From Nitrospirota bacterium (GTDB lineage Bacteria; Nitrospirota; Thermodesulfovibrionia; UBA6902; JAJYJJ01), in the NCBI GenBank assembly GCA_021789595.1, contig JAJYJJ010000008.1, forward strand, positions 25,403-89,402: a stretch of 64,000 bases of DNA. Direction: 5' to 3'. Each line of letters begins with the position of its first letter. Positions within the stretch are counted from its first letter, which is position 1. The position numbers and the translations under genes are program-made. Positions 12,458 to 29,042 of the stretch are shown here, one piece after another. The notes under the pieces were generated by a model. It was given only the letters and a program-made list of their open reading frames with translations, was not told the DNA's origin and ran no database searches.

Positions 12458-12478
12458 GGTACCTCCTGTTCAGCAGTT

Positions 12479-13456: not shown

Positions 13457-13465
13457 GGGGATTTA

Positions 13466-15646
13466 ATGGCTCTAACGAGAAGGGACTTTATTAAGGTTGT
13501 TGGGATAGGGGCATTCGCAGCCACTACAGGCTGCACAAAGCTCTCTGAGTTTATGGATGAAGGAGCGGTTTCTGTACCGCCAAATGGCGTCGAGAAATGG
13601 ATACCCTCTGTATGTGGACAGTGCTCTGGAGGCTGCGGAATAATTGCGAGGGTTATTGATGGGAGGGTGGTAAAGATAGAGGGCAATCCCCTTTCCCCGA
13701 TAAATAGAGGGACCCTGTGTGCGAGAGGACAGGCAGGTCTTCAGGTGTTGTATGACCCGGACAGGATAAGGGCTCCTCTGAGGAGGGTCGGGGACAGGGG
13801 CTCTGACAGGTGGAGGGAGATAGGCTGGGATGAGGCTATAGGGGAGGTTGCGGAGAGGCTTAACGGGATAAGGAGAAAGGGCATCCCCCATAAGGTGGCC
13901 ATGATCTCCGGTTCTGAGAGGGGATCGATGGATCTCCTGTTGTGCCGGTTCATGGAAGCCCTTGGTTCTCCCAATTATTTTCTCATGCCAGATGACAACG
14001 ATGATATACAGATAGATGCGATCTCTGTTATGCAGGGCATAAAAGGCAGGCCCCTCTTCGATATATCCCGTGCAAGATACATCCTGTCCTTTGGTTCTCC
14101 CCTGATCGAGACCTTTTCATCACCCGTCCAGACCATGAGGATGTACGGGGAGTTCAGGGGCGGGAATGGAAAGATGAGGGGCAGGCTGGTCCATATCTCA
14201 CCCCGTCTTTCCGTAACAGGCATAAAGGCGGACAGGTGGGTACCCTTAAGACCGGGCACAGAGGGCGTCTTTGCCCTGGGGATCGCCCATGTAATCATAA
14301 AGGAGTCGCTCTATGATAGAGACTTCATTTCCAGCCATACATCAGGATTTGATGGATTCAGGGAAATCCTCCTCAAGGAGTATACACCATCTTATGTCTC
14401 GAAGATAACATCCCTTGCCGAAGACAGGACAATAGAGATAGCAAGAGAATTTGCCTCATTCAGGCCCTCCCTGGCGATAGCAAACAGGTGTAGGTTATAT
14501 GACCAGATGGCTATTCATTCATTAAACGCCCTTATAGGCAGCATAGGTAAAAGGGGAGGGATAATCTTCCAGAGCGCTCCGGGGCCTTATGCCCTTCCGC
14601 TATCGGAAAGGGCAATAGCGATGACCCCCATTTCCGGTTCACCCTATACGCTTTCTGAGGCGATAAGAAATGGGTCTCCCTACAGCCTGGAAGCCCTTTT
14701 GATTTATAACTGTAATCCCCTCTTCTCCCTGCCCGATATGCATGAGGCATCCAGGGGAATTCCCTTTATTGTGAGTTTCTCTCCCTTCATGAATGAGACA
14801 GCAAGGACGGCAGACCTCATCCTCCCTAACAACACCTATCTCGAAAACTGGGGAGACGTCCTGAGCCATACTGCCGAAGGGACTGCCATCGGCATAAGAC
14901 AGCCTGTCCTGAAGCCGATATACAGGACCATGCAGACCGGTGATGTGATATTAAGGATTGCGAGGAATATGGGCGGGGACATAGAAAAAAGCATGCCCTG
15001 GGGAAGTTTTAAGGATGCCCTTTTTTATTCTTTAAGGCAGCTTCGTAAAAGAAAGGGAGAGGTATTCGGCATTTCAAAGGGATTAAGGGGGGAAGAGGAA
15101 TTTTTGGAGGCCATGCTGGCAGGCGGCGGTTATCGGGAGCCATCGGATTACCAGAGGCCTGGGGAATTTGATTTCCATCAAGTTACCTCACCACAGGCCG
15201 TGAGAGATTATAAGAAGGGCCTATCCGGGGGAGATGAAAAAGACTATCCCCTTTATCTGAATATACACAGGCTTTCGACACATTCGGGCATCACCGATTA
15301 TAACCAGCCCTATCTGAAGGAATCCCTCACACCGGAGATCCCGGAGGCCTGGGATTCATGGGTGGAGATAAATCCGGAGACAGGAAAGAGACGGGGCATT
15401 AGCACAGGGGATATGGTTGTTGTTGAATCTCAGGCGGGGAGGATAAGGCTCAGGGCGAGGTTATATCAGGGGATAATGCCTGATGTTGTGAGCATCCCCT
15501 TTGGACTTGGAGAGGCAGGCCTGGGCAGATGGAATAAAAACATAGGGGTCAATCCGGAGAAGATACTGGTGAAGGATATAGATCTGCCTTCAGGCAATCT
15601 AATCAGAAATTCCACAAGGGTGAGAATATACAGGGCAGATGGCTAA
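13466..15646 (+). CDS. molybdopterin-oxidoreductase-family large subunit with Tat signal (Psr/Qrc/ActB1-like)
   Basis: Twin-arginine signal TRRDFIKVVGIGAFAA, FS0 motif CGQCSGGCG...x27..C, and a C-terminal MopB_CT-like domain (GISTGDMVVVES..G). Confidence 0.85.
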   Translation: MALTRRDFIKVVGIGAFAATTGCTKLSEFMDEGAVSVPPNGVEKWIPSVCGQCSGGCGIIARVIDGRVVKIEGNPLSPINRGTLCARGQAGLQVLYDPDRIRAPLRRVGDRGSDRWREIGWDEAIGEVAERLNGIRRKGIPHKVAMISGSERGSMDLLLCRFMEALGSPNYFLMPDDNDDIQIDAISVMQGIKGRPLFDISRARYILSFGSPLIETFSSPVQTMRMYGEFRGGNGKMRGRLVHISPRLSVTGIKADRWVPLRPGTEGVFALGIAHVIIKESLYDRDFISSHTSGFDGFREILLKEYTPSYVSKITSLAEDRTIEIAREFASFRPSLAIANRCRLYDQMAIHSLNALIGSIGKRGGIIFQSAPGPYALPLSERAIAMTPISGSPYTLSEAIRNGSPYSLEALLIYNCNPLFSLPDMHEASRGIPFIVSFSPFMNETARTADLILPNNTYLENWGDVLSHTAEGTAIGIRQPVLKPIYRTMQTGDVILRIARNMGGDIEKSMPWGSFKDALFYSLRQLRKRKGEVFGISKGLRGEEEFLEAMLAGGGYREPSDYQRPGEFDFHQVTSPQAVRDYKKGLSGGDEKDYPLYLNIHRLSTHSGITDYNQPYLKESLTPEIPEAWDSWVEINPETGKRRGISTGDMVVVESQAGRIRLRARLYQGIMPDVVSIPFGLGEAGLGRWNKNIGVNPEKILVKDIDLPSGNLIRNSTRVRIYRADG

Positions 15647-16322
15647 ATGGGTAATGGTCATAGACCTCGATAAATGCACTGCCTGCCAGGCCTGTGTTGT
15701 AGCCTGCCAGGTGGAAAACAACATTCCCATTGCAGGTCCTGATGAGACAGAAAGGCAGAGGATTATTCGGTGGATGGAGATAATACCTTTTATCTATGGA
15801 GAATATCCTGATGTGAGGATGAGACTGCTGCCGAGACCATGTATGCAATGTGACAACCCGCCATGCACAAAGGTTTGTCCTGTGAGGGCGACCATGCTGG
15901 GACCTGAGGGGATAGTGGCACAGATATACCCGAGGTGCATAGGCTGTAGATACTGCACCTCTGCATGCCCCTACACCGTGAAATACTTTAACTGGCACAC
16001 ACCATCATGGCCCGAGGAGATGAGAAATTCCCTCAACCCCGACGTCTCTGTGAGGCCGGCAGGGGTTGTTGAGAAATGCACCTTCTGCATCCATAGGCTC
16101 CAGAAGGCGAGGGAAAAGGCTGCTGCTGAAGGAAGGCAACTCAGGGAGGGTGATTACATCCCTGCCTGCGTCCAGACATGCCCGAGCTGTGCCATGTATT
16201 TCGGCGATAGCGAGAACCCGAAGAGCATTGTCTCTGACCTCATAAAGAGTCCGAGGGCATTCAGGCTCCTTGAGGAAATAGGCACAGAGCCAAAGGTTTA
16301 TTATCTTTCAGAGGGACAATAG
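15639..16322 (+). CDS. 4x[4Fe-4S] ferredoxin-type subunit (PsrB/QrcC/ActB2-like)
   Basis: Four Cys clusters (CTACQACVVAC, CMQCDNPPCTKVC, CIGCRYCTSAC, CTFCIHR...CVQTC). It overlaps the upstream gene by 8 nt. Confidence 0.9.
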   Translation: MAKWVMVIDLDKCTACQACVVACQVENNIPIAGPDETERQRIIRWMEIIPFIYGEYPDVRMRLLPRPCMQCDNPPCTKVCPVRATMLGPEGIVAQIYPRCIGCRYCTSACPYTVKYFNWHTPSWPEEMRNSLNPDVSVRPAGVVEKCTFCIHRLQKAREKAAAEGRQLREGDYIPACVQTCPSCAMYFGDSENPKSIVSDLIKSPRAFRLLEEIGTEPKVYYLSEGQ

Positions 16323-16323
16323 G

Positions 16324-18069
16324 ATGGAGAGGGAAGATATACTGTTCAAGCCCATTGATAGGCCAGGCAGGAAATTTTACATAGTGGCAGGCATCATGAG
16401 TATGGTTGTGATCTGGGCATTTTATGCCTACATAACAGAGCTCAGGAACGGGCTCGGTGTCACGGGTCTAAACAGGCCTGTGTTCTGGGGGTTCTATATA
16501 ACAAATTTTGTATTCTTTATAGGCATAAGCCATGCAGGAACCCTCATCTCCGCAGTTCTGAGGATAACAAACGCAGAATGGAGGAAGTCCATAACAAGGT
16601 CTGCTGAAGTCATAACAGTCCTGGTTCTGGGCATCGGGGTCATGAACATATTGATGGACCTCGGCAGGCCTGACAGGGTTCTGAATATCATAAAGTATGG
16701 AAGATTCCAGTCTCCTCTTGTCTGGGACCTCATCAGCATTACAACCTATTTAACTGCAAGCATAATATACCTCTACCTCCCCCTTATCCCTGATATTGCT
16801 TTGTTGAGGGATAGGGTAAAAGATGAACCGAGGAAGTGGTTTTATAATATTCTTTCTATTGGCTGGAAAGGGACAGAGGAACAACAAAGGATACTCAACG
16901 GGGCCATCGCTATTATGGCCATTCTTGTTATTCCTATAGCTGTCTCTGTCCATACAGTGGTTTCCTATGTTTTTGCGATGACCATACAACCCATGTGGCA
17001 CAGTGCAATATTCGGGCCTTACTTTGTTGTTGGGGCGATATTCTCTGGCATTGCTGCCATAATAATAATCATGGCAATAATCAGAAAGGTTTACCATCTT
17101 GAAGATTATTTGAGGCCAGTCCATTTTAAGAATTTGGGTATATTGTTATTTGTTATGGCCTGTCTATGGCTATATTTCACACTCAATGAGTATCTGACCA
17201 CCTTCTATGCTGCAGAGCCTGTTCAGATGAAGGTGTTTTACTCAAAGTTTACTGGAAGATATGCACACTTGTTCTGGCTCATGGTTATAACCTGTTTTGT
17301 TATCCCTGCCATACTCCTGGTGAATAAAAGGACGAGAACTATCTCAGGGATGGTTGCGGCATCTATTTCGATAACAATAGGTATGTGGCTTGAGAGATTT
17401 ATAATCATAGTACCCAGCCTTGCAAATCCGAGGCTTCCCTATGAAAGGGGTATATATTTTCCCACATGGGTTGAATGGTCATTGATGGCAGGGTGCTTTG
17501 CCCTATTTGCACTGATGTATATGGTATTCACAAAACTATTCCCCATCGTCTCTGTATGGGAGGTGAGAGAGGCGAGGGAGACGGGATTGAAGGAGATCAG
17601 GGAAAGGGTGAAGGAGTACCTGCCGGGTATGGAGGTACTTGCGAAGAATATTATGAGCAAGGAGGTTATTGCTGTCACACCTGAAACTACTGTGGAGGAG
17701 ATAGGCAGGCTACTCGCCTCCCATCGCATAAGCGGGGTGCCCGTGATAGATGCAGACAAAAGGGTGATAGGGGTGGTCTCGGAGTCGGATGTCATATTCA
17801 GGGAGATAAGGCATGAGTTCACTCTTGTGGAAAGACTGGGTAATATTATCCTGCCAGAACTGCGGAGGGAGGGTGAGAGGTCTGGTAATACCGCAGGTGA
17901 GATAATGACCTCTCCTGCTATTACTGCAGAGGAAGAGACTTCCCTTACTGAACTCATGGAGATAATCAGGGAGAAGAAGATAAAGAGGATAGTCATAGTG
18001 GATAAGGTCGGACGGCTTGCAGGGATAGTCTCGAGGATTGATATAGTAAAGGCGATTGAAAGGATATAA
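16324..18069 (+). CDS. NrfD/PsrC-family integral membrane subunit fused to a C-terminal CBS-pair domain
   Basis: The first ~420 aa are polytopic NrfD-like (GLGVTGLNRPVFWGFYITNFVFFIGISHAGTLIS). From about residue 444 (nt 17653) there are two CBS motifs (SKEVIAVTPETTVEEI...GVPVID and EIMTSPAITA...KRIVIVD..GRLAGIVSRIDIVKA). Confidence 0.85.
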   Translation: MEREDILFKPIDRPGRKFYIVAGIMSMVVIWAFYAYITELRNGLGVTGLNRPVFWGFYITNFVFFIGISHAGTLISAVLRITNAEWRKSITRSAEVITVLVLGIGVMNILMDLGRPDRVLNIIKYGRFQSPLVWDLISITTYLTASIIYLYLPLIPDIALLRDRVKDEPRKWFYNILSIGWKGTEEQQRILNGAIAIMAILVIPIAVSVHTVVSYVFAMTIQPMWHSAIFGPYFVVGAIFSGIAAIIIIMAIIRKVYHLEDYLRPVHFKNLGILLFVMACLWLYFTLNEYLTTFYAAEPVQMKVFYSKFTGRYAHLFWLMVITCFVIPAILLVNKRTRTISGMVAASISITIGMWLERFIIIVPSLANPRLPYERGIYFPTWVEWSLMAGCFALFALMYMVFTKLFPIVSVWEVREARETGLKEIRERVKEYLPGMEVLAKNIMSKEVIAVTPETTVEEIGRLLASHRISGVPVIDADKRVIGVVSESDVIFREIRHEFTLVERLGNIILPELRREGERSGNTAGEIMTSPAITAEEETSLTELMEIIREKKIKRIVIVDKVGRLAGIVSRIDIVKAIERI

Positions 18070-18803: not shown

Positions 18804-18998
18804 TTATAAACTCAATTGATTAATGTAAATTGTTATGGTTGGAAAAATAGAGAGAATAAATTTCTGACCGGTGAATGCAAAATAAAAAATCCTGTGTATA
18901 TTGGCCTTATCCTTTATCCTTATTTCAAAAGGCTTACGATGTCCTGTGATTGGCTTAACATAAGGCTCTTTCACATTAAGACCGTATTGCTCCAGCAA
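18804..18998 (-). pseudogene. truncated RelE/ParE-superfamily (Gp49-like) toxin remnant
   Basis: ...KPITGHRKPFEIRIKDKANIHRIFYFAFTGQKFILS matches the toxin core but then runs into unrelated sequence. No antitoxin partner is present. Confidence 0.45.
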
Positions 18999-19021: not shown

Positions 19022-19381
19022 CTAAGACTGAACAGAGGACAAGGTTATATCCTTACTCACGATGGTAATCCTCTGAAGCCAGAAGATTCCCTTTAAAGGG
19101 GACAATACCCCTTTAATTGTACTTTCCACAAGTAATCGCGTAAAGTCCTTTAGCAATGGGATCTCTCCTTTTTCTGTATAAATACGGAGTTCCGCCTCGT
19201 CTATATAAACTGTTATGTCCCTTGAATCATAGCCCAGCGACAACACAATACCTCTCAAAACATTGCCCATATAGTTCTGGATAAATTCATTAAGCGGCAC
19301 GATAGAATCATTAACGAGCAGACTTGTCTTCAACTGTGTAATATCCTCCCTCTGCACAGGGTTTACACAACACCTTTCCAT
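19022..19381 (-). CDS. hypothetical protein; last gene of the Mo-enzyme operon, start uncertain
   Basis: The tracked ORF overlaps the FmdE-like gene by 71 nt, so the real start is probably internal. No family recognised. Confidence 0.4.
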   Translation of the reverse strand: MERCCVNPVQREDITQLKTSLLVNDSIVPLNEFIQNYMGNVLRGIVLSLGYDSRDITVYIDEAELRIYTEKGEIPLLKDFTRLLVESTIKGVLSPLKGIFWLQRITIVSKDITLSSVQS

Positions 19382-19922
19382 CTCTATGCACCTCCCTCAT
19401 GTCCTGAACATACTCGCCACACACATCGCACTTAACCCTCATCAGCGGCCTACCCGGCATATCCTCAGGCCTTAATTGAACATTCACATCCATCATTTCA
19501 AAGAGTTCTTCATCGGTCATTACCCTGTATGCCTCAAGCTGTGCCTTATATTTGTCCTTCTCAGGAAAATATTCCCTTGCCTTTTCCCTTGCCTCTTCCT
19601 TTGCAATGACCCTAACGGCCTTACCTGTTTTTAGATTTACAAATGTGGCTGCCATTTTGCCGTAGTCCATAAACTTCATTGTCCTGCGTCCAAGGCTGCA
19701 GCCAGTAACAGATTGGACTGCATCCGTTGCACATCTGTCCATCTCAACAAAAACGATCAGATTTTTTTTGTCCTTGCCTTTAGGGTCTTCGATACTAATC
19801 TTTCTCAGTCCAAGCATGGACATCTTTACTCCAAGCATCTGACCCGGGCAGAGATGTCCGTGAATTTTTACTGATTCATCTAAAAGCGATTCGAAATCCA
19901 TTGCATTTATACTATAAACCAT
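19311..19922 (-). CDS. FmdE/FwdE-domain protein with C-terminal zinc ribbon
   Basis: HGHLCPGQMLG and DRCATDAVQSVTGCSLG motifs, plus a C-terminal CDVCGE...CKPC. Confidence 0.8.
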   Translation of the reverse strand: MVYSINAMDFESLLDESVKIHGHLCPGQMLGVKMSMLGLRKISIEDPKGKDKKNLIVFVEMDRCATDAVQSVTGCSLGRRTMKFMDYGKMAATFVNLKTGKAVRVIAKEEAREKAREYFPEKDKYKAQLEAYRVMTDEELFEMMDVNVQLRPEDMPGRPLMRVKCDVCGEYVQDMREVHRDGKVLCKPCAEGGYYTVEDKSAR

Positions 19923-19924
19923 GC

Positions 19925-20566
19925 TTATGTAAATTTATTGTTAACTAAATTCCTTGTCACCTGTGCCAGAGCCTTATAAAATTGCGAGTCCGTTGCTTTT
20001 TCCATATCCATTGTGAACTGTGGAACCCACTTTATAAGATGCTCTTCCAGAAATCTCTTAGCAATATCCATATAATAAAGCCTTTTTTCGGGTTCATTAT
20101 CCATTTTTTGAAACAAGACTGCCATAAAATTCAGTTCTGCTCCAATATGGTCAGACATTATATCAGGATTATTAATTGTTAACCCAATTTTAGTATAAAT
20201 ATTTTTGACTTCATCATATGCATCCTGCATCATCAGTCTTTTAGGTGATGTATATACAGATTCCCACGGCGGACAGGGAAGCTTATATGGTCCGATAAAA
20301 AGCCTTGTGTACTCCCATAACAAATCTTCAAGCTCCTGCCCTGAATTAAGGTCTATCACATCAATAGCATCCTTTAAGCCTGACAAGAGATCAGACACAT
20401 CCAGAGGAAGCAATGTCTTCCAGTTTTCAATGGCCTCTCTTGTAGGTTTGCATAAATACATACTGCTTAAAAGACTGCAAGCTTTTTGCCATTCACTACC
20501 AATAATCATTGTGGCATCCCGCATCGTATTTATACCCCTCATGATCTGTCGTTTATGCAAGGGCAC
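19925..20566 (-). CDS. TorD/DmsD-family redox-enzyme maturation chaperone
   Basis: 213 aa. YTRLFIGPYKLPCPPWESVY and HIGAELNFMA are typical of TorD-like chaperones, and the gene follows the FeS subunit gene. Confidence 0.8.
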   Translation of the reverse strand: MPLHKRQIMRGINTMRDATMIIGSEWQKACSLLSSMYLCKPTREAIENWKTLLPLDVSDLLSGLKDAIDVIDLNSGQELEDLLWEYTRLFIGPYKLPCPPWESVYTSPKRLMMQDAYDEVKNIYTKIGLTINNPDIMSDHIGAELNFMAVLFQKMDNEPEKRLYYMDIAKRFLEEHLIKWVPQFTMDMEKATDSQFYKALAQVTRNLVNNKFT

Positions 20567-20620
20567 AACATATGTTGTACCCTTGCAATCTTACGCAGTG
20601 AAATTTTTATCTCTGTATCC

Positions 20621-21211
20621 TTATTTCTTTATGTTCCTTGCCTCCACAAACCTTATTGAGGGTCTTGTTAATTTTGGGTCTGCAAGGTCTGGCAGCTTTT
20701 CAACAATCTTACCCTTAAATACAGGGTCTGCAAAGGCATTGCCTGCTTCAACATCAGGGAGTCTTCCATTGGAAAGGGCATAGCCCATACAGGTCCTCAC
20801 ACATGCAGGAGGAAGCCCTGCCTTTAGCCTGTGGATGCAGAAGTTACACTTATCTACTTTCTTCTTCTTCTCGTCAAACTGAGGAGCGCCATAAGGACAG
20901 GCGGCCATACAGCGTTTGCAGCCAATGCATTTCTTCTGATCATGCAGTACAACACCGAACTCCGGCTCCTTAGTGTATGCTCCTACAGGACATGCCTTCA
21001 TGCATGCAGGCTCCTCGCAGTGATTGCAGGAGATGGAGATATATCTCACCACAGGATTGGGGTATTTGCCTTCCTCTTTAATAATCACCCTTCTCCGTCT
21101 AATTCCAACAGGCAGGTCAAATTCCTGTTTGCACCCGGCCTCGCATGCCCTGCACGCAATACAGTTGTCCTCATCATAAAGCCACGCCATCTGTTTTGGA
21201 TTCTTTGCCAT
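20621..21211 (-). CDS. 4x[4Fe-4S] electron-transfer subunit of the Mo enzyme
   Basis: CIACRACEAGC, CNHCEEPACMKAC, CIGCKRCMAAC and CNFCIHR...CVRTC. Confidence 0.9.
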   Translation of the reverse strand: MAKNPKQMAWLYDEDNCIACRACEAGCKQEFDLPVGIRRRRVIIKEEGKYPNPVVRYISISCNHCEEPACMKACPVGAYTKEPEFGVVLHDQKKCIGCKRCMAACPYGAPQFDEKKKKVDKCNFCIHRLKAGLPPACVRTCMGYALSNGRLPDVEAGNAFADPVFKGKIVEKLPDLADPKLTRPSIRFVEARNIKK

Positions 21212-21223
21212 TTATATCACCTC

Positions 21224-23575
21224 CTACGCCTTAATTATTCTAATGCCGATTTCTTTATGGACAGCCATGCCCGATGTCTTTTCAGCTACGCCAGCGAGGA
21301 ATTGACCATCTGCTGTGCCTGCAGGCGACCATCTGTTGATCTTGTTCAGAGAGCCTCTTGCTATCTTCCCAAATGCCCAGTGGCCATAGCCATGCTGAAG
21401 TGAAACAACTTCCGGATGTATCCTTTCAGTTGTCTGCACTGTTGCCTTTGCCCTTGCATAAGGAGACTCAAGCCAGATGGCGTCTCCATCCTTAAGCCCG
21501 AGATTTGCCGCAGTGGCAGAATTTATAATGAGAGGATTATCAGACTTCATCTCCATAAGCCAGTTGTTGTTAAATGTCCTTGAATGGGTATGTTCGGACT
21601 GCTTGAAATTGACAAGATAAAGGGGAAACTCAGCAGTTGGTTTATATATTGGCTCAACATAATCTGGCAGAGGATTTAAACCCTTTTTTGCCATCTGTTC
21701 TGAGTAGAACTCTATCTTCTTTGAAGGTGTTGCAAAACCATTCTTTTTATATTTTTCGTAATGGGTTTCACCTCCGATAAACACGGCACCTGGAAGCGCC
21801 AGCATCTCATCAAGTGTCTTTCCAATGGGGCCGTTTTTGAGCTGGTCTGAGATGTATTCGGGATAGGTGTCAGGCAGGGTCTTGCCATCCTTATCCTTTA
21901 GCCCCATCTTCCTAGCGAGGGCAAGGATGAACTCCTGCTCCGTCATCCCATTTATCACTGACTTGACGGCAGGCTGCCTTATGGCTGTGGCAGGGAAGGT
22001 GACCCAGTTCACATTCACTTCCCAGCGCTCGAGATAATGGCTGCCTGGTATCACTATATCTGCAAGCTCGGCAGTCTCGCTCATCATCGTGTCAAAAACG
22101 ACCACATATTCAAGTTTCTTTAGTGCTTCAATATTCTTCCTTGTGTTGGGGATTGCCATAACAAAGTTGTGGAACATAAGCACCGCCGCACGAAGCTGAT
22201 AGGGCTTACCTGAGAGCATTGCATCCCTTGTCTCCACCAATATCCCTGATGGATGGGCAAAAGGATATTTTGTCCCCAGTCCGTCAATCCTTGGCGACTT
22301 GGGTTTATCAACATTGAATGCCCTGCGCTTGCCGCCCATGGCCTGTCTGATCATCATCGTGCCGGGTTTATCATATTGTCCGAGCAGGGCAGGAAGCATC
22401 GCTATTGCCCTTCCGCCGTCTGTTGCATTGGTATGATGGCCTGGACCGCTCCATACATCAACAATAGCGGGCTTGGTTGCGGCAAGCTCTTTTGCTATCC
22501 TTCTTGTGGTTTCTGCCGGCACAGAGGTAATCCTTTCAGCCCATTCAGGGGTTTTATCCCTGACAAGCTCCGCATATTTATCGAACCCTACTGTGTAATT
22601 CTTTATGAATTCCTCATCATACCACCTGTTCCTCACAATCTCATGCCCCAGAGCGAGCGCAAATGCGCCGTCTGTCCCGGGCCTGATAGGTATCCATTCA
22701 TCTGCCTTTGCTGTGGTCTGACTATAGGAGGGGTCGACAACTACCATTTTTGCTCCTTTTGCCCTGCCCCAGTTATATATACCTGGCAGATGAGACCACT
22801 TTGTGGCTCCAAGGAAGTTCCATCCGAAAACAAGGGCATACTTTGTATTTGCAAAGTCAGGTAATGGTCTTTCATCACCCATCACCAGCTTGAATGATGC
22901 CTTTCTTGCCACATCACAGAGGTTTGAATGCTGCGAGTAATTTGGAGAACCGTAGAGAAGGTTGAAGTCTCCCTGCATGTCTGTAAATGATGAGTCTTCA
23001 GTAGTCCAGAAAAGGGCCTCTGGGCCGTATTTCTTCCGTATTTCCAGTAGATTTTTTGCCACATCATCAAGGGCCTCTTTCCATGAGATGGCCTTCCATT
23101 TTCCCGATCCTCTCGGCCCTACCCTCTTCATCGGTTTTTTCAGCCTGTCTGGATCATAGAGCGCCCTCGTTCCTGAATTGCCTTTTGGACACATCCTTCC
23201 GCCAAGGGCCTTTTTCTCAGCATAATCTGTTGAGATATTCGCTACGCCTATAGGGTTATATTCATTCGGTTCGATCTTTACAACCCTTCCATCAACAACA
23301 TGTACCTTTATACCTGATGTGCCTCCGCACATCTGGCATGTGGTATAAATCCATTTGCCTTTCCCGGCAAATAGCGATCCTTCCAGCCTTTCTTGTGCAC
23401 TGGCTTCCCTGAAAAGGCCGAGTTTGTCATCCCATATAAGGCCGCTGGCAATGGCTGCTCCGGCAAGGGCCGATGTCCATTTAAGAAAGGACCTTCTTGT
23501 GAATTCCTTCCCTGTAACTTTTTCAAAAACACTTTTTTCTTCTTCCGTTATAATCCTTTTTTCGCTCATCAACAT
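21224..23575 (-). CDS. periplasmic Mo/W-bisPGD oxidoreductase catalytic subunit (Psr/Phs/Arr/Ttr superfamily, substrate unknown)
   Basis: 783 aa with Tat signal FTRRSFLKWTSALAGAAIA. The N-terminal cluster motif reads CQMCGGTSG...C, candidate Mo-ligand segment is QHSNLCDVARK, and a C-terminal MopB_CT domain is present (GLKDGDAIWLESPYARA). Confidence 0.9.
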   Translation of the reverse strand: MLMSEKRIITEEEKSVFEKVTGKEFTRRSFLKWTSALAGAAIASGLIWDDKLGLFREASAQERLEGSLFAGKGKWIYTTCQMCGGTSGIKVHVVDGRVVKIEPNEYNPIGVANISTDYAEKKALGGRMCPKGNSGTRALYDPDRLKKPMKRVGPRGSGKWKAISWKEALDDVAKNLLEIRKKYGPEALFWTTEDSSFTDMQGDFNLLYGSPNYSQHSNLCDVARKASFKLVMGDERPLPDFANTKYALVFGWNFLGATKWSHLPGIYNWGRAKGAKMVVVDPSYSQTTAKADEWIPIRPGTDGAFALALGHEIVRNRWYDEEFIKNYTVGFDKYAELVRDKTPEWAERITSVPAETTRRIAKELAATKPAIVDVWSGPGHHTNATDGGRAIAMLPALLGQYDKPGTMMIRQAMGGKRRAFNVDKPKSPRIDGLGTKYPFAHPSGILVETRDAMLSGKPYQLRAAVLMFHNFVMAIPNTRKNIEALKKLEYVVVFDTMMSETAELADIVIPGSHYLERWEVNVNWVTFPATAIRQPAVKSVINGMTEQEFILALARKMGLKDKDGKTLPDTYPEYISDQLKNGPIGKTLDEMLALPGAVFIGGETHYEKYKKNGFATPSKKIEFYSEQMAKKGLNPLPDYVEPIYKPTAEFPLYLVNFKQSEHTHSRTFNNNWLMEMKSDNPLIINSATAANLGLKDGDAIWLESPYARAKATVQTTERIHPEVVSLQHGYGHWAFGKIARGSLNKINRWSPAGTADGQFLAGVAEKTSGMAVHKEIGIRIIKA

Positions 23576-23582
23576 CCCTCCT

Positions 23583-23936
23583 TTACTGTGCGTATAATAC
23601 CTTTGCGCCTTTCACACCACCACTGTGGCATCCGGCACAAAGCTGCGGGTCAACCTGCCTCCTCAATGCAGCAGCAGAGCCTTCTCTTAAATCAACGGAT
23701 TGATGACAGTCGGCACAATTCTTTGGTGTTCCAAGCTTTGATTCAAGGTGCACCCTGTGGTATGTCTTGAACTTCTTATTCAGTGTTACTCTCGTTTTGA
23801 TGTTGGCATGGCATGCAAGACACTGCTTATTGCTAAGTTTACCTGCATTTTTATGCAGGTAAATAAGGTTCTTTTCTGCAGCAACTGCTACAGAAACAAA
23901 CATAAGCACAAAGCATACAACCAAAAACCTTTTCAT
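23583..23936 (-). CDS. secreted trihaem c-type cytochrome
   Basis: Signal peptide plus CLACH, CADCH and CAGCH. First gene of the operon; SD GGAGGAGG. Confidence 0.8.
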   Translation of the reverse strand: MKRFLVVCFVLMFVSVAVAAEKNLIYLHKNAGKLSNKQCLACHANIKTRVTLNKKFKTYHRVHLESKLGTPKNCADCHQSVDLREGSAAALRRQVDPQLCAGCHSGGVKGAKVLYAQ

Positions 23937-24076
23937 AAACCTCCTCCTTTCATGAAATGATTTTCATTCAGAGAGACATCTAAGATTTTATTTTTCCCAC
24001 CTCCTTCTTCCCATCAGATTAACTCTAAAATTCCTTATTGCATTACCTCAAATAAAATTCTTTTACCGACTTATTT

Positions 24077-24092
24077 ATCAACTTTCATGCCA
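24077..24092 (-). promoter_or_regulatory. weak sigma-54-like promoter TGGCATGAAAGTTGAT
   Basis: Spacing is correct and the -24 element is good, but the -12 element reads GA instead of GC. It lies about 140 nt upstream of the cytochrome ATG. Confidence 0.3.
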
Positions 24093-24225
24093 CATGTAAC
24101 TCCTTGAATTTAAAAGATTTGTGTTTTCAAGAGTGTTACGAAAAGGAAACACATCTTGGATAAAAATCCCCCTTTAGCTTTTATTTTCAACAAAAAATAC
24201 ATTTTTTCCTCCGAAAATATTCAAA

Positions 24226-24243
24226 TGTTACAATTGTGTAACA
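24226..24243. promoter_or_regulatory. inverted repeat TGTTAC-N6-GTAACA (candidate response-regulator site)
   Basis: Perfect 6-bp arms. A further TGTTAC occurs at 24133-24138. It lies about 140 nt upstream of the candidate -24/-12 element. Confidence 0.3.
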
Positions 24244-24263: not shown

Positions 24264-26336
24264 CTACCTGTCTCCTATTATTTTCTGCTGAAGGCTCTTT
24301 ACTGCCTTTTCCAGACGTTCAAGCTCCTTTATCTCTTCCTGCATCAGTGGAAATTGGAGCACTGGGAGATTGAATCTTTCCTTAATCTCCATCAGGTATT
24401 TCATCTGCATCTGTCTTCTGTTTTTAAAGAAGTCATTCACACACACATCCTCAGGCAGTATCATATTTGCGATAACAAGCTGCGTCTCTATGCCAGCCTC
24501 TTTCAGATCGAGCATTGCCCGATAGGACTCCATAATCGGTGTCGATTCCGGATACAGGACAAGGCTGAATATAGTGCGGTTCCTGTCTTTCAGTATCCGG
24601 ATGATATCCCTGAACCTGTTCTGTGTTGCCTCCTTTGCTTCCTGGCTTTCTGCTCCGCCGACCATCATTTCCACCTGTTTTGCATAATCAAAGGGCAGAT
24701 CGAGAAGCCTGAGCGTATGGCCTGTCGGAGAAGTGTCGAATACTATTACATCATACTCCTGTCCCTCAATGAATTGTATGAACTTATCAAAGGCAGCCAT
24801 CTCTTCTGTGCAGGGAGAGTTCAGTTCCTCCTCCATGGCGGCAAGCATGTCTTCGGAATATTTCCCTCTGGCATCATTCAGCACCCTTTCTTTGTATTCC
24901 TTAAACGCTGCTTCCTGATCAATCATAACTGCATAGAGGTTATCTGTAATCTTTGAAGGTTCACTTCCGACCCGAATGCCGAGAACCTCTCCAATGTGTG
25001 CCGCGGGATCTGTGGTGATGAGTAGTGTCTTAAAACCCCTTTGAGCGCTGTACAGAGCGGCGATGCACGAGATCGTCGTCTTTCCCACGCCGCCCTTGCC
25101 GGTGAAAAATATGGCTTTTGTCTCGCCTGCGCGAGGAAGCCAGAGATGATCTATGTCAGGTTTTTCGATATTGCTAAGTCGGTCATTAGTAAAACCGCAT
25201 AAATCACCCTCCCCTTCATCCCCTCCCATCAAGGGAGGGAAAATTAACTCCCCCTTCCCCCTCTTAAGATAAGAGGGGGTGCCAAAGGCGGGGGCGTTAT
25301 CTCCCCTGGAGGGAGAGGGCGAGGGTGAGGGGGGATTGTTAGTAAATAGTTCTTCCGCAACACCCCTTAAAGCATTCACCCCTTTTACCTCGTTATCCCT
25401 TAAGAGCATATACCGTTTCGGCTTCTCTATGGCGCTTTCCGTTTCTTTAATCACCCTTTGTTGTGAATTGTATTTTCTTCTGAAAAATTCAATGTCACAG
25501 ACCTCTTCAGGCAGGATGCCGTTTATGATTATTTGAGCGGATTTAATTCCGATGGTCTCAAGCTCTTTCGATGCCCTAAGTGTCTCATAGAGAGAGAGTT
25601 CCTCGGGTCTCATAACAAATATGAATGTCGTCCTTTCAGTATCTCTCAAGAGTGCCGTTGCCCTGTCGTACTTGTCCTTTGAGTCCTGAATAGACTGGAC
25701 AGGTCCAAGGCAGGTCTGTCCGCTCCCCTTCGCAGACTCTTCAATGTGTTTGGACCAGTCCACAGGAAGCTCAAGCAGCCGAATGGTGTGTCCGGTGGGA
25801 GCTGTATCAAAGACAATGACCTCATATTCATCACCTTCCATGAAGTCTATGAACCGGTCAAACGATGCCATTTCCGTAGTGCACGGGCCGCTCAAATTCT
25901 CCTCTAAAGATGTAATAACATCTTCCGGCATTAGTTCCCTGAACGGCCCTATGATGCGTTCCTTATATTCCTTTGTGGCTTCGTCAGGATCTATCTCCAT
26001 GGCAAAGAGGAATCCCTTCTTTTCACCCTCCCCTTCGTCCCCTCCCGTCAAGGAAGGGGGATTATTAGGTTCCTCACCTCGCTGGAGAGGCTCTCTTATA
26101 TTTTCCCTCTCCCCTTGCGGGAGAGGGTTGGGGTGAGGGGGTATATTTATTGGTGTTATCTTATGTCCTATCTCCTGTTCAAACACATCAGCAAGATTGG
26201 AGGCTGGATCTGTGGTGAGAATAAGTGTCCTTTTGCCGCTCAGTGCATAATGAATTGCAGTGGCAGATGCCATTGTGGTCTTGCCGACACCGCCTTTGCC
26301 AGAAAAGAAAATGTATTTCGTCATTTCATCCACCAA
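24264..26336 (-). CDS. arsA: arsenite-stimulated ATPase ArsA (two-domain) with two in-frame repeat insertions
   Basis: Two GKGGVGKTT P-loops and two DTAPTGHT/DTSPTGHT signature motifs. At 690 aa it is longer than I recall for typical ArsA. Confidence 0.93.
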   Translation of the reverse strand: MVDEMTKYIFFSGKGGVGKTTMASATAIHYALSGKRTLILTTDPASNLADVFEQEIGHKITPINIPPHPNPLPQGERENIREPLQRGEEPNNPPSLTGGDEGEGEKKGFLFAMEIDPDEATKEYKERIIGPFRELMPEDVITSLEENLSGPCTTEMASFDRFIDFMEGDEYEVIVFDTAPTGHTIRLLELPVDWSKHIEESAKGSGQTCLGPVQSIQDSKDKYDRATALLRDTERTTFIFVMRPEELSLYETLRASKELETIGIKSAQIIINGILPEEVCDIEFFRRKYNSQQRVIKETESAIEKPKRYMLLRDNEVKGVNALRGVAEELFTNNPPSPSPSPSRGDNAPAFGTPSYLKRGKGELIFPPLMGGDEGEGDLCGFTNDRLSNIEKPDIDHLWLPRAGETKAIFFTGKGGVGKTTISCIAALYSAQRGFKTLLITTDPAAHIGEVLGIRVGSEPSKITDNLYAVMIDQEAAFKEYKERVLNDARGKYSEDMLAAMEEELNSPCTEEMAAFDKFIQFIEGQEYDVIVFDTSPTGHTLRLLDLPFDYAKQVEMMVGGAESQEAKEATQNRFRDIIRILKDRNRTIFSLVLYPESTPIMESYRAMLDLKEAGIETQLVIANMILPEDVCVNDFFKNRRQMQMKYLMEIKERFNLPVLQFPLMQEEIKELERLEKAVKSLQQKIIGDR
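25204..25336. repeat. GC-rich palindromic repeat modules inside the arsA A1-A2 linker
   Basis: A 36-nt module at 25204-25239 is 33/36 identical to 26023-26058. GGGAGAGGG-N3-GGGTGAGGGG at 25311-25334 matches 26119-26141. Hairpins include CCCTCCC-ATCAA-GGGAGGG. Confidence 0.7.
26023..26141. repeat. second copy of the GC-rich palindromic repeat modules, inside the arsA A1 domain loop
   Basis: Same two modules as at 25204-25336, with a 9-bp hairpin CCCTCTCCC-CTTGC-GGGAGAGGG (26105-26127). Confidence 0.7.
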
Positions 26337-26667
26337 CCTGTAAGGTAATAGGTTTCTTTTTCAATGGCTCTATCCCCAATGCCCTGCATAGCTCTTCATA
26401 CGATGGATATTCCCCTGTCTTCATCACCTCTCCGCTGACCATTGTAATGGGCAGTACCTTTTTACCGTTTTCATGAAGCAGTTCGGCGATCGTTTTGTTT
26501 GCCATAAATGCCCTTGGCTGCTGGGCAAGGTTATATCTCTCTACTTCCACCCCCTGCTTTTTTAATGCCAGCACCGCATCGTTCATCTTTACCAGAACAG
26601 GGTCAATGCTTGGCCCGCAAAGCCCCGATGAACAGCACATCGCCGGGTCGTAGATTTCTATTTTCAT
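26326..26667 (-). CDS. arsD: arsenic metallochaperone ArsD
   Basis: MKIEIYDPAMCCSSGLCGP shows the Cys12-Cys13-Cys18 pattern. It overlaps the arsA start by 11 nt. Confidence 0.9.
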   Translation of the reverse strand: MKIEIYDPAMCCSSGLCGPSIDPVLVKMNDAVLALKKQGVEVERYNLAQQPRAFMANKTIAELLHENGKKVLPITMVSGEVMKTGEYPSYEELCRALGIEPLKKKPITLQVGG

Positions 26668-26685
26668 ACCAATTCCTCCTTTATC

Positions 26686-27582
26686 TTATTTGTTACCTTT
26701 TACGAGCAATACCGGCCTGTCGCTGTACTCAACGACATTCCGTGAAACCGATCCCCAGAGGACGCCCTCTACGTACCCCTTTCCATGAGAACCCATCACA
26801 ACAAGTGAAACATCCTCTTCCCTTGCAATACGGATAAGATCAGCACCTGGCTTTCCCACATGCAGATGAATCTTTGCCTTAAAACCTGCTATCTCAAGTC
26901 TCTTTTTCACATCTTCTAATTTCTCTTTATCTATCCTCTCAAACTCCTTAAACTTTTCAGGAGACTGGAGTTTCATCGCCTTTTCATCCATTACATGGGC
27001 AACGGTAACTTCTTCAACACCTGCATCTTTCAATCCTTTCAGATATCGCAATGCTTCTTTTGCGCAGTCAGACCAGTCTGTAGGGTAGAGAACCCTGCCG
27101 AATGGAGTTGTGCAATACCGTGCACATGCCTCTTTGCTTCCACCAAATGAGGCAGGATATTTCGCTATATACACCGGCACATTGCCGTATCGTATGACCT
27201 TATCAGTATTTGAACCTATAAATATCTCGCCAAATATTCCTTTCGTCTGTCTTCCCGATACAATTAGAGATACTTTTTCCTCATCTGCTGCCTCTAATAT
27301 TTCTCTATAGGGGACACCAACTTTTATAAGTCTCTTTGCCCTGACCCCTGCATTCTCAATCATACTGACAGCCTCTACCATCTTTAAATCTGCAATCTCT
27401 GAGAATCTCTTCACATCTTCAGGGCTGTATCCCTCGTATTTGTCCATGGGTAGTTTTGATACATCTATGACATGAAGAAGGACTATCTCCTCTGTTCCTG
27501 CCTTTTTGAAATTCAAAATACACGAAAGCAGATCAAGGGAAAACTCCTCAAACTTAATCGGATAAAGTATCTTTTTATACAT
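26686..27582 (-). CDS. tandem universal stress protein (two UspA domains)
   Basis: 298 aa, with two repeats each ending in G(S)xG...V...S..PVL(L/Y)V-type motifs. Confidence 0.85.
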   Translation of the reverse strand: MYKKILYPIKFEEFSLDLLSCILNFKKAGTEEIVLLHVIDVSKLPMDKYEGYSPEDVKRFSEIADLKMVEAVSMIENAGVRAKRLIKVGVPYREILEAADEEKVSLIVSGRQTKGIFGEIFIGSNTDKVIRYGNVPVYIAKYPASFGGSKEACARYCTTPFGRVLYPTDWSDCAKEALRYLKGLKDAGVEEVTVAHVMDEKAMKLQSPEKFKEFERIDKEKLEDVKKRLEIAGFKAKIHLHVGKPGADLIRIAREEDVSLVVMGSHGKGYVEGVLWGSVSRNVVEYSDRPVLLVKGNK

Positions 27583-27584
27583 GG

Positions 27585-28637
27585 TTATTCCCTCCCCTTA
27601 AAGAGTTTAAATTCAGTCTTCTTTGCAAACCACACAAGGGCGAGCATCACCGGCACCTCGATGAGCGGGCCGATGACCGTGGCGAGTGCCACCGTGGGGT
27701 TGAAGGCCGTGATCGCAATGGCGATGGCGATTTCGAAGTCCCTTCCTGTTGCGTTAAACCCTACAGCTACTGCATCCTTATAATTCAAACCCAGTTTCCA
27801 TCCGACGAGATAAACGACCACAAACATTGTCCAGAAAAACAGCGTCATGGGTATCGCCAAATGGACAATAAACATAGGCTTTTCAAGGATCAGATCGCCT
27901 TTTAAGGCAAACATTACTATCAGGGTAAAAAGCAGCCCTACTATTGACATCGTGTCCAGATAGAATTTCAGCTTATGAAACCATTCTTCACCAAACCTTT
28001 TTACACCGAGAAATCTCGTAAGCATTCCTGCGACAAGGGGAATGCCAAGGTAAAGAAGAACGCTTTCGCCCACAACCCAAACATCAAAATTAATCTCTCC
28101 GAGAAGGAGCTTTGCATAGACGGGGATGAGGACCATCTGAATAATTGAGTTTAGCGCAACGAGGATGATCGCAAGGGGACCGTTTCCTGCTGAAAGGTAG
28201 GTAAAGACAATCACCATCGCAATACACGGGGCGAGCCCGTAAAGAACGAGCCCCGTGTACAAGTCGGGCTCGCTGCTTAAAAATATCTTTGCGAGCAGGA
28301 GCATGAAAAACGGAGCTATAGCGTAATTGAAAAACATGACTATCAGAAGCTGTTTCGGCGAACGAGTCGCCTTGCCGAGGTCTTCAAACTTAATATTTGC
28401 CATTGCAGGATACATCATCATGAAAAGCCCGACGACTATGCCGAGGGCAAGGGTATTGCCTATGCTGAATTCATAAGTCCCGTGAAAGATAGATTTAATC
28501 GCATCAATCGGCGGGGTAAGCTCAAAATTTGAAATTCCATACCACTTGCCAATGGCAATGCCGATAATCATACTGACAATGACAAACACAGGTAACAGCC
28601 TGAAGTTGTGAAGCTTCTCAAGAAATTTTCTAAACAT
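27585..28637 (-). CDS. acr3: arsenite efflux transporter ACR3
   Basis: 350 aa and polytopic, with the conserved GLAPCIAMV segment. Confidence 0.92.
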   Translation of the reverse strand: MFRKFLEKLHNFRLLPVFVIVSMIIGIAIGKWYGISNFELTPPIDAIKSIFHGTYEFSIGNTLALGIVVGLFMMMYPAMANIKFEDLGKATRSPKQLLIVMFFNYAIAPFFMLLLAKIFLSSEPDLYTGLVLYGLAPCIAMVIVFTYLSAGNGPLAIILVALNSIIQMVLIPVYAKLLLGEINFDVWVVGESVLLYLGIPLVAGMLTRFLGVKRFGEEWFHKLKFYLDTMSIVGLLFTLIVMFALKGDLILEKPMFIVHLAIPMTLFFWTMFVVVYLVGWKLGLNYKDAVAVGFNATGRDFEIAIAIAITAFNPTVALATVIGPLIEVPVMLALVWFAKKTEFKLFKGRE

Positions 28638-28640
28638 CCT

Positions 28641-29042
28641 TTACCTCCCGCAGCATTGAGTGCGTAGGTGCGAAAGATTTTTCGCCCCTACATTAGGCAC
28701 GGCATGTCGTGCCCTTACAACCTTGTTTTTCAAAAACTCCTCAAGCCTCGCCAGGTCTTCCTTAACAGCATCCTCAGGAATCCGCTCAAGAACAGAGAGG
28801 ATCAAGAATCTCTTGAACATATCAGAACTATCTATGCTGTAATGAATCCATTTACCCTGCCTTCTGTCCTTAATCAATCCAGCCTCTTTCAGCACACTGA
28901 GATGAAAGGAGACCTTTGGCTGAATCATATCGAGTGCTGCAACGATATCGCACACACATAGTTCTCCGTGCTCGAGGAGCTTTAATATCCTGAGTCTTGT
29001 TTCATCAGAGAGGGCTTTAAAAATGTTCAGTAATTCCTCCAT
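28641..29042 (-). CDS. arsR: ArsR-family metalloregulator with a repeat-derived C-terminal tail
   Basis: ELCVCDI metal site and a winged HTH. The last ~23 aa (RARHAVPNVGAKNLSHLRTQCCGR) are encoded by a palindromic repeat. Confidence 0.88.
   Translation of the reverse strand: MEELLNIFKALSDETRLRILKLLEHGELCVCDIVAALDMIQPKVSFHLSVLKEAGLIKDRRQGKWIHYSIDSSDMFKRFLILSVLERIPEDAVKEDLARLEEFLKNKVVRARHAVPNVGAKNLSHLRTQCCGR
28664..28718. repeat. REP-like double hairpin element at the arsR 3' end
   Basis: GTAGGTGCGAAA...TTTCGCCCCTAC (12-bp stem, 1 mismatch), followed by AGGCACG-GCATGT-CGTGCCC. Confidence 0.5.

Follow-up and report, generated by a model that had tools for sequence, protein, structure and literature searches.

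Respiratory arsenate reductases of the ArrAB type (Shewanella sp. ANA-3, PDB 6CZ7; Geobacter) are soluble periplasmic heterodimers, exported by the twin-arginine translocation (Tat) system, of a catalytic subunit with a molybdenum-bis(pyranopterin guanine dinucleotide) (Mo-bisPGD) cofactor and an iron-sulfur (FeS) subunit with four clusters: their operons have no anchor gene, adjoin ars genes, include a TorD-like chaperone and are under XSR- or ArsR-type arsenic regulation, and a separate multihaem c-type cytochrome (CymA in Shewanella) feeds them electrons. PsrABC (Thermus thermophilus, PDB 2VPW) and PhsABC (Salmonella, E. coli plasmids) have a Cys-ligated Mo-bisPGD subunit with the same domain order and a membrane C subunit, and the Arx system (ArxB'ABCD with ArxXSR) combines an arsenic-dedicated Mo-bisPGD enzyme with a binding protein, a kinase and a sigma-54 regulator, a -24/-12 promoter and a GTAAC-containing upstream site. 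Further non-Arr members of the dimethyl sulfoxide (DMSO) reductase family have been linked to arsenate respiration by induction or genomic context (the Ttr-like enzymes of Pyrobaculum, Anaeromyxobacter PSR-1 and Limisphaera, and the Psr/Phs-like MROS_1774), all of them membrane-anchored ABC complexes of other clades. Here we describe an operon from a 64-kb stretch of Nitrospirota DNA (contig JAJYJJ010000008.1; the whole stretch is hereafter the window, to which coordinates refer) that encodes a soluble periplasmic molybdoenzyme beside arsenic resistance genes. The evidence for its role in arsenic metabolism is considerably stronger than adjacency alone, and the strongest part of that evidence is a predicted arsenic-responsive regulation that is conserved among related loci.

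Six tightly packed open reading frames (ORFs) occupy positions 23936-19022 of the minus strand, in the order and at the places that a first-pass annotation of this DNA had assigned to them, and the conserved gene set lies within 23936-19311. The leading gene (23583..23936) encodes a periplasmic cytochrome c of 117 aa with a signal peptide and three CXXCH haem motifs (CLACH, CADCH and CAGCH), which scores above the Pfam Cytochrome_C7 cut-off (PF14522; 28.8 vs 24.8 bits). Next comes the Tat-exported Mo/W-bisPGD catalytic subunit, A (21224..23575; 783 aa as an ORF), with the Pfam domains Molybdop_Fe4S4, Molybdopterin and Molydop_binding, Cys220 as the metal ligand, and a twin-arginine motif that reads TRRSFLKW, the Pfam TAT_signal match lying under its cut-off (20.6 vs 22.7 bits); because homologues measure 776-778 aa, its true start is probably the ATG at 23569 (MSEKR...). 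The FeS electron-transfer subunit, B (20621..21211; 196 aa; Pfam Fer4_11), has 16 Cys in four ferredoxin-type [4Fe-4S] motifs and no signal peptide, and its best NCBIfam scores (DmsB 159, NrfC 125 and ArrB 118 bits) are all below cut-off. It is firmly supported that this subunit is a Tat hitch-hiker, exported together with the catalytic subunit, and that A and B form a soluble periplasmic heterodimer.

Two further genes encode a chaperone of the TorD/DmsD family (D; 19925..20566; Pfam Nitrate_red_del, E = 1.5e-30), which serves in Tat proofreading and cofactor insertion, and a protein combining FmdE with a C4 zinc ribbon (19311..19922; Pfam FmdE, E = 9e-36; zf-dskA_traR), which is probably a maturation factor. 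The operon differs from arrAB in its dedicated, co-transcribed three-haem cytochrome and its extra FmdE-like gene, and from psrABC and phsABC in having a periplasmic cytochrome instead of the membrane C subunit. It contains no membrane-anchor gene, as the first-pass annotation had noted, but a Qrc-like complex of cytochrome, FeS and NrfD subunits is encoded about 1 kb past its 3' end on the other strand. A scan for terminators returned no convincing internal one on the coding strand, and an Rfam scan of the 5' region at gathering thresholds returned no Moco riboswitch or other RNA element.

The catalytic subunit carries its Pfam domains above cut-off, and the top Foldseek matches of its AlphaFold model (predicted local distance difference test score 65.5 overall and below 50 at residues 214-223 and 377-382, so used for fold assignment only) all belong to the DMSO reductase (MopB) superfamily, with probability 1.00. 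Among NCBIfam models PhsA fits best, at 442 bits against a cut-off of 694 (NF012032), followed by ArrA at 250.6 against 1600 (NF041714) and TtrA at 142. The sequences of solved structures rank as Thermus PsrA (312 bits by HMMER), Shewanella ArrA (210) and acetylene hydratase (209), an order that Foldseek reproduces at template-modelling (TM) scores of about 0.7, with PsrA on top (TM 0.70/0.75). Over aligned columns the protein is 35% identical to PsrA, 32% to a plasmid PhsA (PGAP-annotated) and 30% to ArrA; since PsrA and PhsA are 34% identical to each other, it is about as far from each as they are from one another. A genuine PhsA representative, 36% identical to the catalytic subunit, reaches 1058 bits on the PhsA model, on which the three tiers of family members described below score 387-450 bits; the other relatives sampled at about 36% identity fall under every cut-off themselves.

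The family has a distinct edge: an HMMER scan over 1.84 billion representatives of 50%-identity clusters returned only about ten at 41-53% identity (457-847 bits), then a sharp fall to 391 bits (38% identity) and a continuum of relatives at about 35%, with the family's signature motifs confined to the top group. We also built the phylogeny that the first-pass annotation had called for, as a neighbour-joining tree with 200 bootstraps and Thermus PsrA, PhsA, ANA-3 ArrA and one ArrA-like sequence as references (SrrA, Wolinella PsrA, SreA, ArxA and AnrA were not among them). The family was monophyletic in 200/200 replicates, with Thermus PsrA and PhsA always outside, and joined the Arr pair in 2.5%; it branches with Psr-like proteins, and the tree does not place it robustly inside any characterised clade. 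SoeABC of Thioalkalivibrio, the antimonite oxidase NaoABC and the Ttr-like enzyme of Limisphaera were considered as relatives and rejected as unrelated clades. JGI annotation labels family members as thiosulfate/polysulfide reductase chain A, and a search of full-text literature found no description of the family. By these comparisons the catalytic subunit belongs to an uncharacterised, sharply delimited family that is neither Arr/Arx nor PhsA/PsrA, which bears out the earlier suggestion of an uncharacterised clade distinct from canonical Arr and Arx.

A scan of one genome per GTDB species yielded 80 best loci, all from metagenome-assembled genomes (MAGs) and none of them an alternative arsenate reductase of the Ttr-like or MROS_1774 kind. 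Members at 81% or more identity to the window protein (tier 1; 776 aa) come from Nitrospirota, Dissulfurispiraceae, Desulfobacterota, Geobacteraceae and one NC10 bin. Those at 54-63% (tier 2; about 831 aa) have the same cytochrome-A-B-D(-FmdE) operon and occur in the tier-1 phyla as well as Armatimonadota and others, and those at 44-52% (tier 3), with an FeS-NrfD-A order and a membrane anchor, occur in Omnitrophota, Methylomirabilota, Chloroflexota, Acidobacteriota, Nitrospira and many more. Across tiers 1 and 2 the cytochrome gene lies directly 5' of the catalytic gene in 35 of 38 loci, the chaperone gene is kept in 33 of 38, and 16 of 38 have fmdE behind it. Other conserved neighbours of the family are molybdenum-related, namely a ModE-like/MoCF_biosynth protein, MoaA and the molybdate transporter MOT1. 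A scan of metagenome contigs added 13 close relatives, most on contigs with less than 2 kb upstream. In one tier-2 locus (L004) a true ArrA-like operon lies directly downstream (12863-17576 of that locus) and encodes a catalytic subunit with RGRY intact (1117 bits on the ArrA model across its entire length, 53% identical to ANA-3 ArrA), an FeS subunit, a TorD-like protein and, at its 3' end, an FmdE protein with zinc ribbon; a 61%-identical ArrA-like gene also lies near a tier-3 member (L048, 14257-16809).

The 327 nt between arsA and the cytochrome gene hold three promoter elements on the operon's strand: a distal upstream activating sequence (UAS), the perfect palindrome GTTACACAATTGTAAC (24227..24242), which conforms to GTTWC-N6-GTAAC and is a putative binding site of the response regulator R1 described below; a proximal UAS, GTTTCCTTTTCGTAAC (24135..24150), present as an identical 16-mer in four related loci (L088, L041, L009 and L025); and, 57-59 bp downstream of the latter, a -24/-12 box of the sigma-54 type, TGGCATGAAAGTTGA (24078..24092), 156 nt upstream of the cytochrome start codon. 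Within the window GTTWC-N6-GTAAC is restricted to this intergenic region (3 matches vs 0.04 expected), and at least one such site occurs in 16 of 42 related upstream regions, vs about 0.4% in shuffles. The strict sigma-54 consensus TGGCAC-N5-TTGC missed most sites, and relaxing the -12 element to TTG(A/C/T) exposed a conserved box, TGGCA-N6-TTG; in the window, the two palindromic sites together with such a box are found 5' of this operon only. Both the spacing between the two UAS (89-92 bp) and that from UAS to box (57-59 bp) are kept in seven loci (L088, L041, L009, L010, L024, L025 and L031); UAS and -24/-12 elements are present in L013 and L021 too, and the distance between box and upstream sequences is alike in nine loci. 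In other loci the elements stand 5' of the cytochrome gene or, where a tatA gene is interposed, 5' of tatA. A scan for sigma-70 promoters did not rise over the shuffled background. Two tandem palindromes with a -24/-12 box are the architecture of aioBA promoters accompanied by aioXSR, for which a position 100-300 nt upstream is characteristic (PMC3834237). Here as there, palindromes and box are found 150-300 nt upstream of the first structural gene, and a GTAAC-containing site has been proposed for ArxR (PMC5908839). The tatA gene (MFGLGLPEIAVMAVIGLLLFGPSKLPQLGKGLGEA...) lies at 8124-8291 of L009, between the sigma-54 promoter and the cytochrome gene, and likewise in L007 and L010; some genomes therefore bring along a Tat component of their own with the operon.

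The regulators that would act on such a promoter are encoded on the same strand at 29516..34070, where a double periplasmic binding protein (X1), a histidine kinase (S1) and a sigma-54 response regulator (R1) make up the AioXSR-like system that the first-pass annotation had recognised nearby. These proteins are 56-76% identical to a trio located directly upstream of the operon in ten loci (L009, L010, L013, L015, L021, L041, L024, L025, L031 and L032), and the binding protein of the window's second trio (49471-44999) is only 22-27% identical; because of this orthology, we take X1-S1-R1 to be the operon's cognate sensor, displaced in the window by the ars operon. The N-domain of X1 scores higher as ArrX (174 bits) than as AioX (145 and 138 bits), and in alignments to both it keeps 7/7 of the AioX pocket residues (Tyr88, Cys106, Tyr131, Ser161, Ser163, His192 and Asp210; PMC5908839), including the subfamily-specific Cys106. 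It is without the three-residue insertion bearing Val56-Phe57-Leu58 of the arsenite binders AioX and ArxX and aligns gap-free to ArrX, an arsenate binder for which a shorter loop has also been noted (PMC5908839). The C-domain of X1 resembles PtxB, HtxB and PhnD, so X1 differs from AioX and ArrX in being a two-domain fusion; the system as a whole differs from AioXSR and ArrXSR in that the regulated enzyme comes from another family and an ars operon separates the trio from its target. The second trio, whose binding protein X2 is about 25% identical to X1, lies in a region (39494-51204) with genes for a YeeE/YedE-type sulfur transporter, a protein of the prismane/CO-dehydrogenase family, a ferredoxin and a pyridine-nucleotide disulfide oxidoreductase beside it and for a SoxB-like protein with a 5'-nucleotidase domain upstream; the X2 ligand is possibly a sulfur oxyanion.

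Directly upstream on the same strand, the resistance operon arsR-acr3-usp(x2)-arsD-arsA (24264..29042; arsA 24264..26336, arsR 28641..29042; Pfam ArsA_ATPase, ArsD, Usp, SBF and HTH_5) is the arsenic neighbourhood that had been described at first pass. Elsewhere the enzyme genes lie inside, or are divergent from, ArsR-controlled ars operons (L001, L002, L016, L017, L020, L044 and L096): the order is arsR-acr3-arsC-cytochrome-A-B-D in L001 and acr3-cytochrome-A-B-D-arsC in L016, and arsR is divergent by 109 bp in L002 and L017. These ArsR-operon versions are without the sigma-54 elements. A sensor orthologue or ars structural genes flank 14 of the 20 tier-1 genome loci, and a tally of the window together with every tier-1 locus that has some 3 kb or more upstream gives 16 of 21. 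That two independent types of arsenic-responsive control occur in about 75% of close loci can hardly be put down to chance; from PsrABC and PhsABC the family differs in its arsenic-linked regulation and neighbourhood. The arsenic link first suggested by adjacency is therefore strengthened by the XSR-type promoter, by the orthologous trio directly upstream in ten loci, and by the ars operons that hold the enzyme genes elsewhere.

The active site departs from those of ArrA, PsrA and PhsA. The Cys-ligand segment HSNLCDVARK maps exactly to 22930-22901, as first reported, and residues 189-201 of the catalytic subunit, FWTTEDSSFTDMQ, align by HMMER with the Shewanella ArrA segment LLRGRYSHINDLLY, so that the (R/K)GRY motif, whose absence had been noted, is indeed missing. 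The ArxA motif is XGRGWG. GRGWG is likewise missing, the aligned region reading WTTEDSSF, and the gene order typical of Arx, arxB'ABCD, is not found here, there being no FeS gene upstream (arxB') and no anchor gene (arxC); in these respects, in its ArrX-type sensor loop and in lying outside the Arr/Arx clade, the system is unlike Arx. The substrate residues of ArrA are Tyr166, His189, Ser190, Lys198 and Tyr210 (PMC10654088; the deposited chain is offset by 40, as confirmed on the FS0 cysteines). In the alignment His189, Ser190 and Lys198 correspond to His216, Ser217 and Lys225 of the family, and H216, S217, C220 and K225 are spaced identically to their ArrA counterparts, the Cys ligand included. 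Arg165, which with Tyr166 belongs to the (R/K)GRY motif of ArrA and binds substrate as well, is replaced by Glu193, Tyr166 by Asp194, and Tyr210 by Arg236. The Glu193-Asp194 pair is invariant across 83 aligned family loci (the 80 genome loci plus L001-L006), and all tiers share the signature W190-x2-E193-D194-x2-F-T, H216-S-N-x-C220-D-x2-R224-K225, R236 and W375-S-G-P-G-(H/Q)-H; Arg224, four residues past the Cys ligand, is common to PsrA. The pocket thus aligned is a hybrid that keeps the His-Ser...Lys triad of ArrA, has two acids for its Arg-Tyr and places two Arg elsewhere, and Arg224 and Arg236 might compensate for the lost Arg165-Tyr166. Its ligand segment, HSNxCDxxRK, differs from those of PsrA (PSVSLCTAPRE) and PhsA (HASTCPAGKS).

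The FS0 cluster site is unusual as well. In the window it reads C80-x2-C83-x3-S87...C129 instead of the four-Cys pattern of ArrA (C-x2-C-x3-C...C), and position 87 (codon 23317-23315) is Ser or Thr in most members and Cys in a few, which implies either a [3Fe-4S] cluster or one in which a residue other than Cys serves as a ligand; the FS0 domain also has an insert of 16-30 residues in all tiers, unlike ArrA. Given this variation in the third ligand, cluster type or potential may differ among otherwise near-identical enzymes.

Apart from its haem motifs, the mature part of the cytochrome has exactly three further invariant His and no Met, which indicates a c7/c3-like protein with three low-potential haems of predicted bis-His ligation, and we propose this protein as the direct redox partner of the enzyme. 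A dedicated small cytochrome had been taken at first pass to suit an oxidase-type electron flow; the low-potential bis-His haems, the ArrX-type sensor loop and the anaerobic hosts lean to a reductase instead. A candidate link to the quinone pool is the Qrc/ACIII-like membrane complex that starts about 1 kb past the 3' end of the operon on the opposite strand (12962..18069, plus strand). It comprises a c7-like cytochrome, a QrcB-like subunit (327.7 bits against the QrcB cut-off of 440, with Asn replacing the Mo-ligand Cys), an FeS subunit and an NrfD protein fused to a CBS pair, and it comes with a separate sigma-54 box (12567-12581), while a receiver-less sigma-54 activator is encoded divergently from it (11219-12457). 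As a conserved partner this complex was rejected: it is nearby only in the window and in L066, where a full homologous operon is present. The region of the Qrc-like operon (11219-18069) also holds an ORF of 118 aa, and its NrfD-CBS fusion is unusual.

The enzyme probably transforms arsenic, and we tentatively read the operon, with somewhat less than even confidence, as that of a periplasmic As(V) reductase that arsenic induces and that takes its electrons from a low-potential bis-His cytochrome. X1-S1-R1 would sense a periplasmic arsenic oxyanion, and R1, at the two palindromic upstream sites, would activate the sigma-54 promoter; under the control of an arsenic sensor, the enzyme would be made when arsenic is present. 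The TorD-like chaperone and the FmdE-like protein would mature the Mo-bisPGD subunit, which Tat would export with its FeS partner, and a two-electron reduction of As(V) to As(III) would follow in the periplasm, the substrate being arsenate or an As(V) compound much like it. From menaquinol, electrons would run through a membrane quinol dehydrogenase (for which the Qrc/ACIII-like complex is a candidate), the three-haem cytochrome, the FeS subunit and FS0 to Mo, and the adjacent Acr3/ArsDA would handle the arsenite produced. The substrate, the direction of electrons and the quinol-side partner are parts of this scheme that we infer. We favour the reductive direction because of the ArrX-type loop, the low-potential cytochrome, the anaerobic hosts (MAGs of Nitrospirota, Dissulfurispiraceae, Desulfobacterota and Geobacteraceae) and a position of the locus equivalent to that of the anchor-less arrAB in Geobacter OR-1, and we count the retained His-Ser...Lys and Cys ligand of ArrA for an As(V) reductase. 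As a precedent, arsenic induces Psr/Phs-like or Ttr-like enzymes that do not belong to the Arr clade in Melioribacter roseus and Pseudodesulfovibrio mercurii.

Several observations weigh against an As(V) reductase of this kind. With Glu193-Asp194 in place of Arg165-Tyr166, and Asp221 after the Cys ligand, the pocket would be an unexpected one for a dianion, and the FS0 site, whose third ligand is mostly Ser or Thr, is reminiscent of the [3Fe-4S] site with three Cys in arsenite oxidase and would suit an oxidase-type enzyme of higher potential. The arsenic association fades with distance, to 5 of 18 tier-2 and 10 of 45 tier-3 loci, and all members found come from MAGs, none from a cultured organism. 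The ArrA-like neighbours in L004 and L048, finally, hint at a role that is non-redundant with, and complementary to, that of ArrA.

This last point also bears on another reading, possible though unlikely, in which the enzyme reduces As(V) or a metalloid in a form other than free arsenate, in the first place thioarsenate, or else methylarsenate or antimonate. Reductive cleavage of thioarsenate at its As-S bond (S-AsO3 + 2e- -> HS- + arsenite) corresponds exactly to what thiosulfate reductase does, and the nearest relatives of the enzyme, by PsrA fold match and PhsA model score, are of the Psr/Phs type; the ArrA-type His-Ser...Lys that contacts the AsO3 moiety is kept, and the exchange of Arg-Tyr for Glu-Asp points to a substrate of another geometry. 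The family is hosted by sulfate reducers and sulfur disproportionators of sulfidic habitats, where thioarsenates dominate. ArrA-like operons alongside in L004 and L048 would then point to a complementary substrate, arsP, which encodes a methylarsenite efflux permease, adjoins the operon in six loci (L002, L013, L018, L020, L032 and L044), and the PhnD/PtxB-like second domain of X1 could sense a second ligand; yet no sulfur-transfer genes (rhodanese, Sud and the like) are conserved beside the operon, and the N-domain of X1 looks like a plain arsenate/arsenite binder. Carried further, and with as little confidence, this reading makes the family an unrecognised arsenic-redox lineage beside Aio, Arr/Arx and the Ttr-like enzymes, with a substrate other than free arsenate, an arsenic species such as is typical of anoxic habitats that are sulfidic or methylating (most attractively thioarsenate), and with the variable FS0 and the c7-type cytochrome as its wiring. 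Were the enzyme simply a sulfur-compound reductase (of polysulfide, thiosulfate or elemental sulfur), its arsenic context would reflect either recruitment to the arsenic regulon, where periplasmic sulfide made by it would sequester As(III), or mere co-location. We consider this improbable, although PsrA and PhsA are closest in sequence and fold, the JGI label names such a reductase, most tier-2 and tier-3 loci are without arsenic genes nearby, a TauE sulfite-exporter gene adjoins the operon in one tier-2 locus, and a Psr-like operon of P. mercurii ND132 is induced by As(III), an unknown thioarsenic compound being formed: the enzyme scores under the PhsA cut-off at 32-36% identity to PhsA and PsrA, its clade excludes both, its pocket has ArrA-type His-Ser/Lys and not the PsrA/PhsA residues, sulfide-producing hosts need no extra source of sulfide, and the two types of regulation in most close loci are hardly chance.

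Electrons could also flow the opposite way, from As(III) at Mo through the FeS subunit and the small cytochrome to the quinone pool by way of the Qrc-like complex acting as a menaquinone reductase. Such an anaerobic arsenite oxidase would agree with the three FS0 Cys of most members, with active-site acids that could be bases for neutral As(OH)3, and with the adjoining Qrc-like operon, characterised Qrc complexes running from cytochrome c3 to menaquinone. Arsenite oxidases also provide the best-known cases of XSR systems that have sigma-54 regulators (PMC5908839, PMC3834237). ArsR-controlled versions of the operon would, moreover, be induced by As(III), the substrate, but ArsR control is non-discriminating: in Shewanella, arr too is induced by As(III) through ArsR. 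We regard an oxidase as rather unlikely, since the potentials to be expected of three bis-His haems are much lower than that of the As(V)/As(III) couple, the step from arsenite to menaquinone is uphill, the X1 loop is short and of ArrX type and not the arsenite loop of AioX and ArxX, and the strictly anaerobic tier-1 hosts offer no obvious acceptor of high potential.

The remaining features of the operon and its surroundings touch the enzyme less directly. The sixth ORF (19022..19381, minus strand; 119 aa), which overlaps fmdE by 71 nt and has a weak NCBIfam similarity, far under cut-off (E = 5.5e-6), to the C-terminal part of MobB/FeS fusion proteins, had been counted as an operon member at first pass, but it is not a conserved one: 0 of 80 genome loci have one, it is found only in L088, the closest metagenome relative (65% identity), and at best it would be a lineage-specific add-on. 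A second FmdE protein with zinc ribbon, 31% identical to the operon copy, is encoded at 37084-37710 next to the gene of an MFS_3 transporter, and the two copies have a 36-nt DNA stretch in common (19843-19878 and 37613-37648). Between the two molybdoenzyme operons lie two small ORFs (18456-18998), one with a Gp49/HigB-like toxin domain, which are probably a toxin-antitoxin pair or its remnant. Within arsA, a 36-nt C/T-rich element occurs in frame in two copies, 92% identical (25204-25239 and 26023-26058), that belong to insertions rich in proline, glycine and glutamate, one per ATPase half; it looks like a small repeat tolerated inside the coding region. Between arsR and the regulator gene, an ORF of 90 aa (29071-29343) is similar to ArsP permeases over their first 50 residues only; these permeases measure about 315-380 aa in full in related loci, and the ORF is probably an arsP remnant.

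Farther off, two overlapping ORFs in different frames (8590-8960; KKVYAVRCAM / MCHGASGKGDGP) jointly resemble one mono-haem cytochrome c, its CXXCH split by a frameshift, and represent either a pseudogene or an assembly error. The region 9166-11103 encodes a protein of 435 aa with an N-terminal CSVCH haem motif and a C-terminal part like an outer-membrane beta-barrel (ending in LAWLVF), then a stand-alone Molydop_binding protein of 140 aa, neither with an obvious partner. A tRNA-Val gene (7653-7727) precedes, by about 1.4 kb, the block extending from this haem/porin-like gene to the sensor trio (about 9.2-34.1 kb); no integrase and no direct repeat was seen, and G+C content is not distinct, so there is no evidence of a mobile island.

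Within the DMSO-reductase superfamily, the family stands out by an active-site signature of its own, an FS0 site of unusual make-up, a cytochrome dedicated to the enzyme, and arsenic-responsive regulation that is conserved. The family offers a natural experiment in specificity, with the His-Ser-Lys triad of ArrA retained and its Arg-Tyr swapped for Glu-Asp, and its conserved promoter and double-domain sensor are directly testable regulatory parts. Mobilisation of arsenic in aquifers and paddy soils is tracked by the markers arrA, arxA and aioA, which overlook this family, and JGI annotation books it under sulfur cycling (psrA/phsA). If its members do act on arsenic, such surveys would miss an activity that is widespread in Nitrospirota, Desulfobacterota, Geobacteraceae and many groundwater phyla, and the family may be a candidate explanation of arsenate respiration in organisms without Arr.

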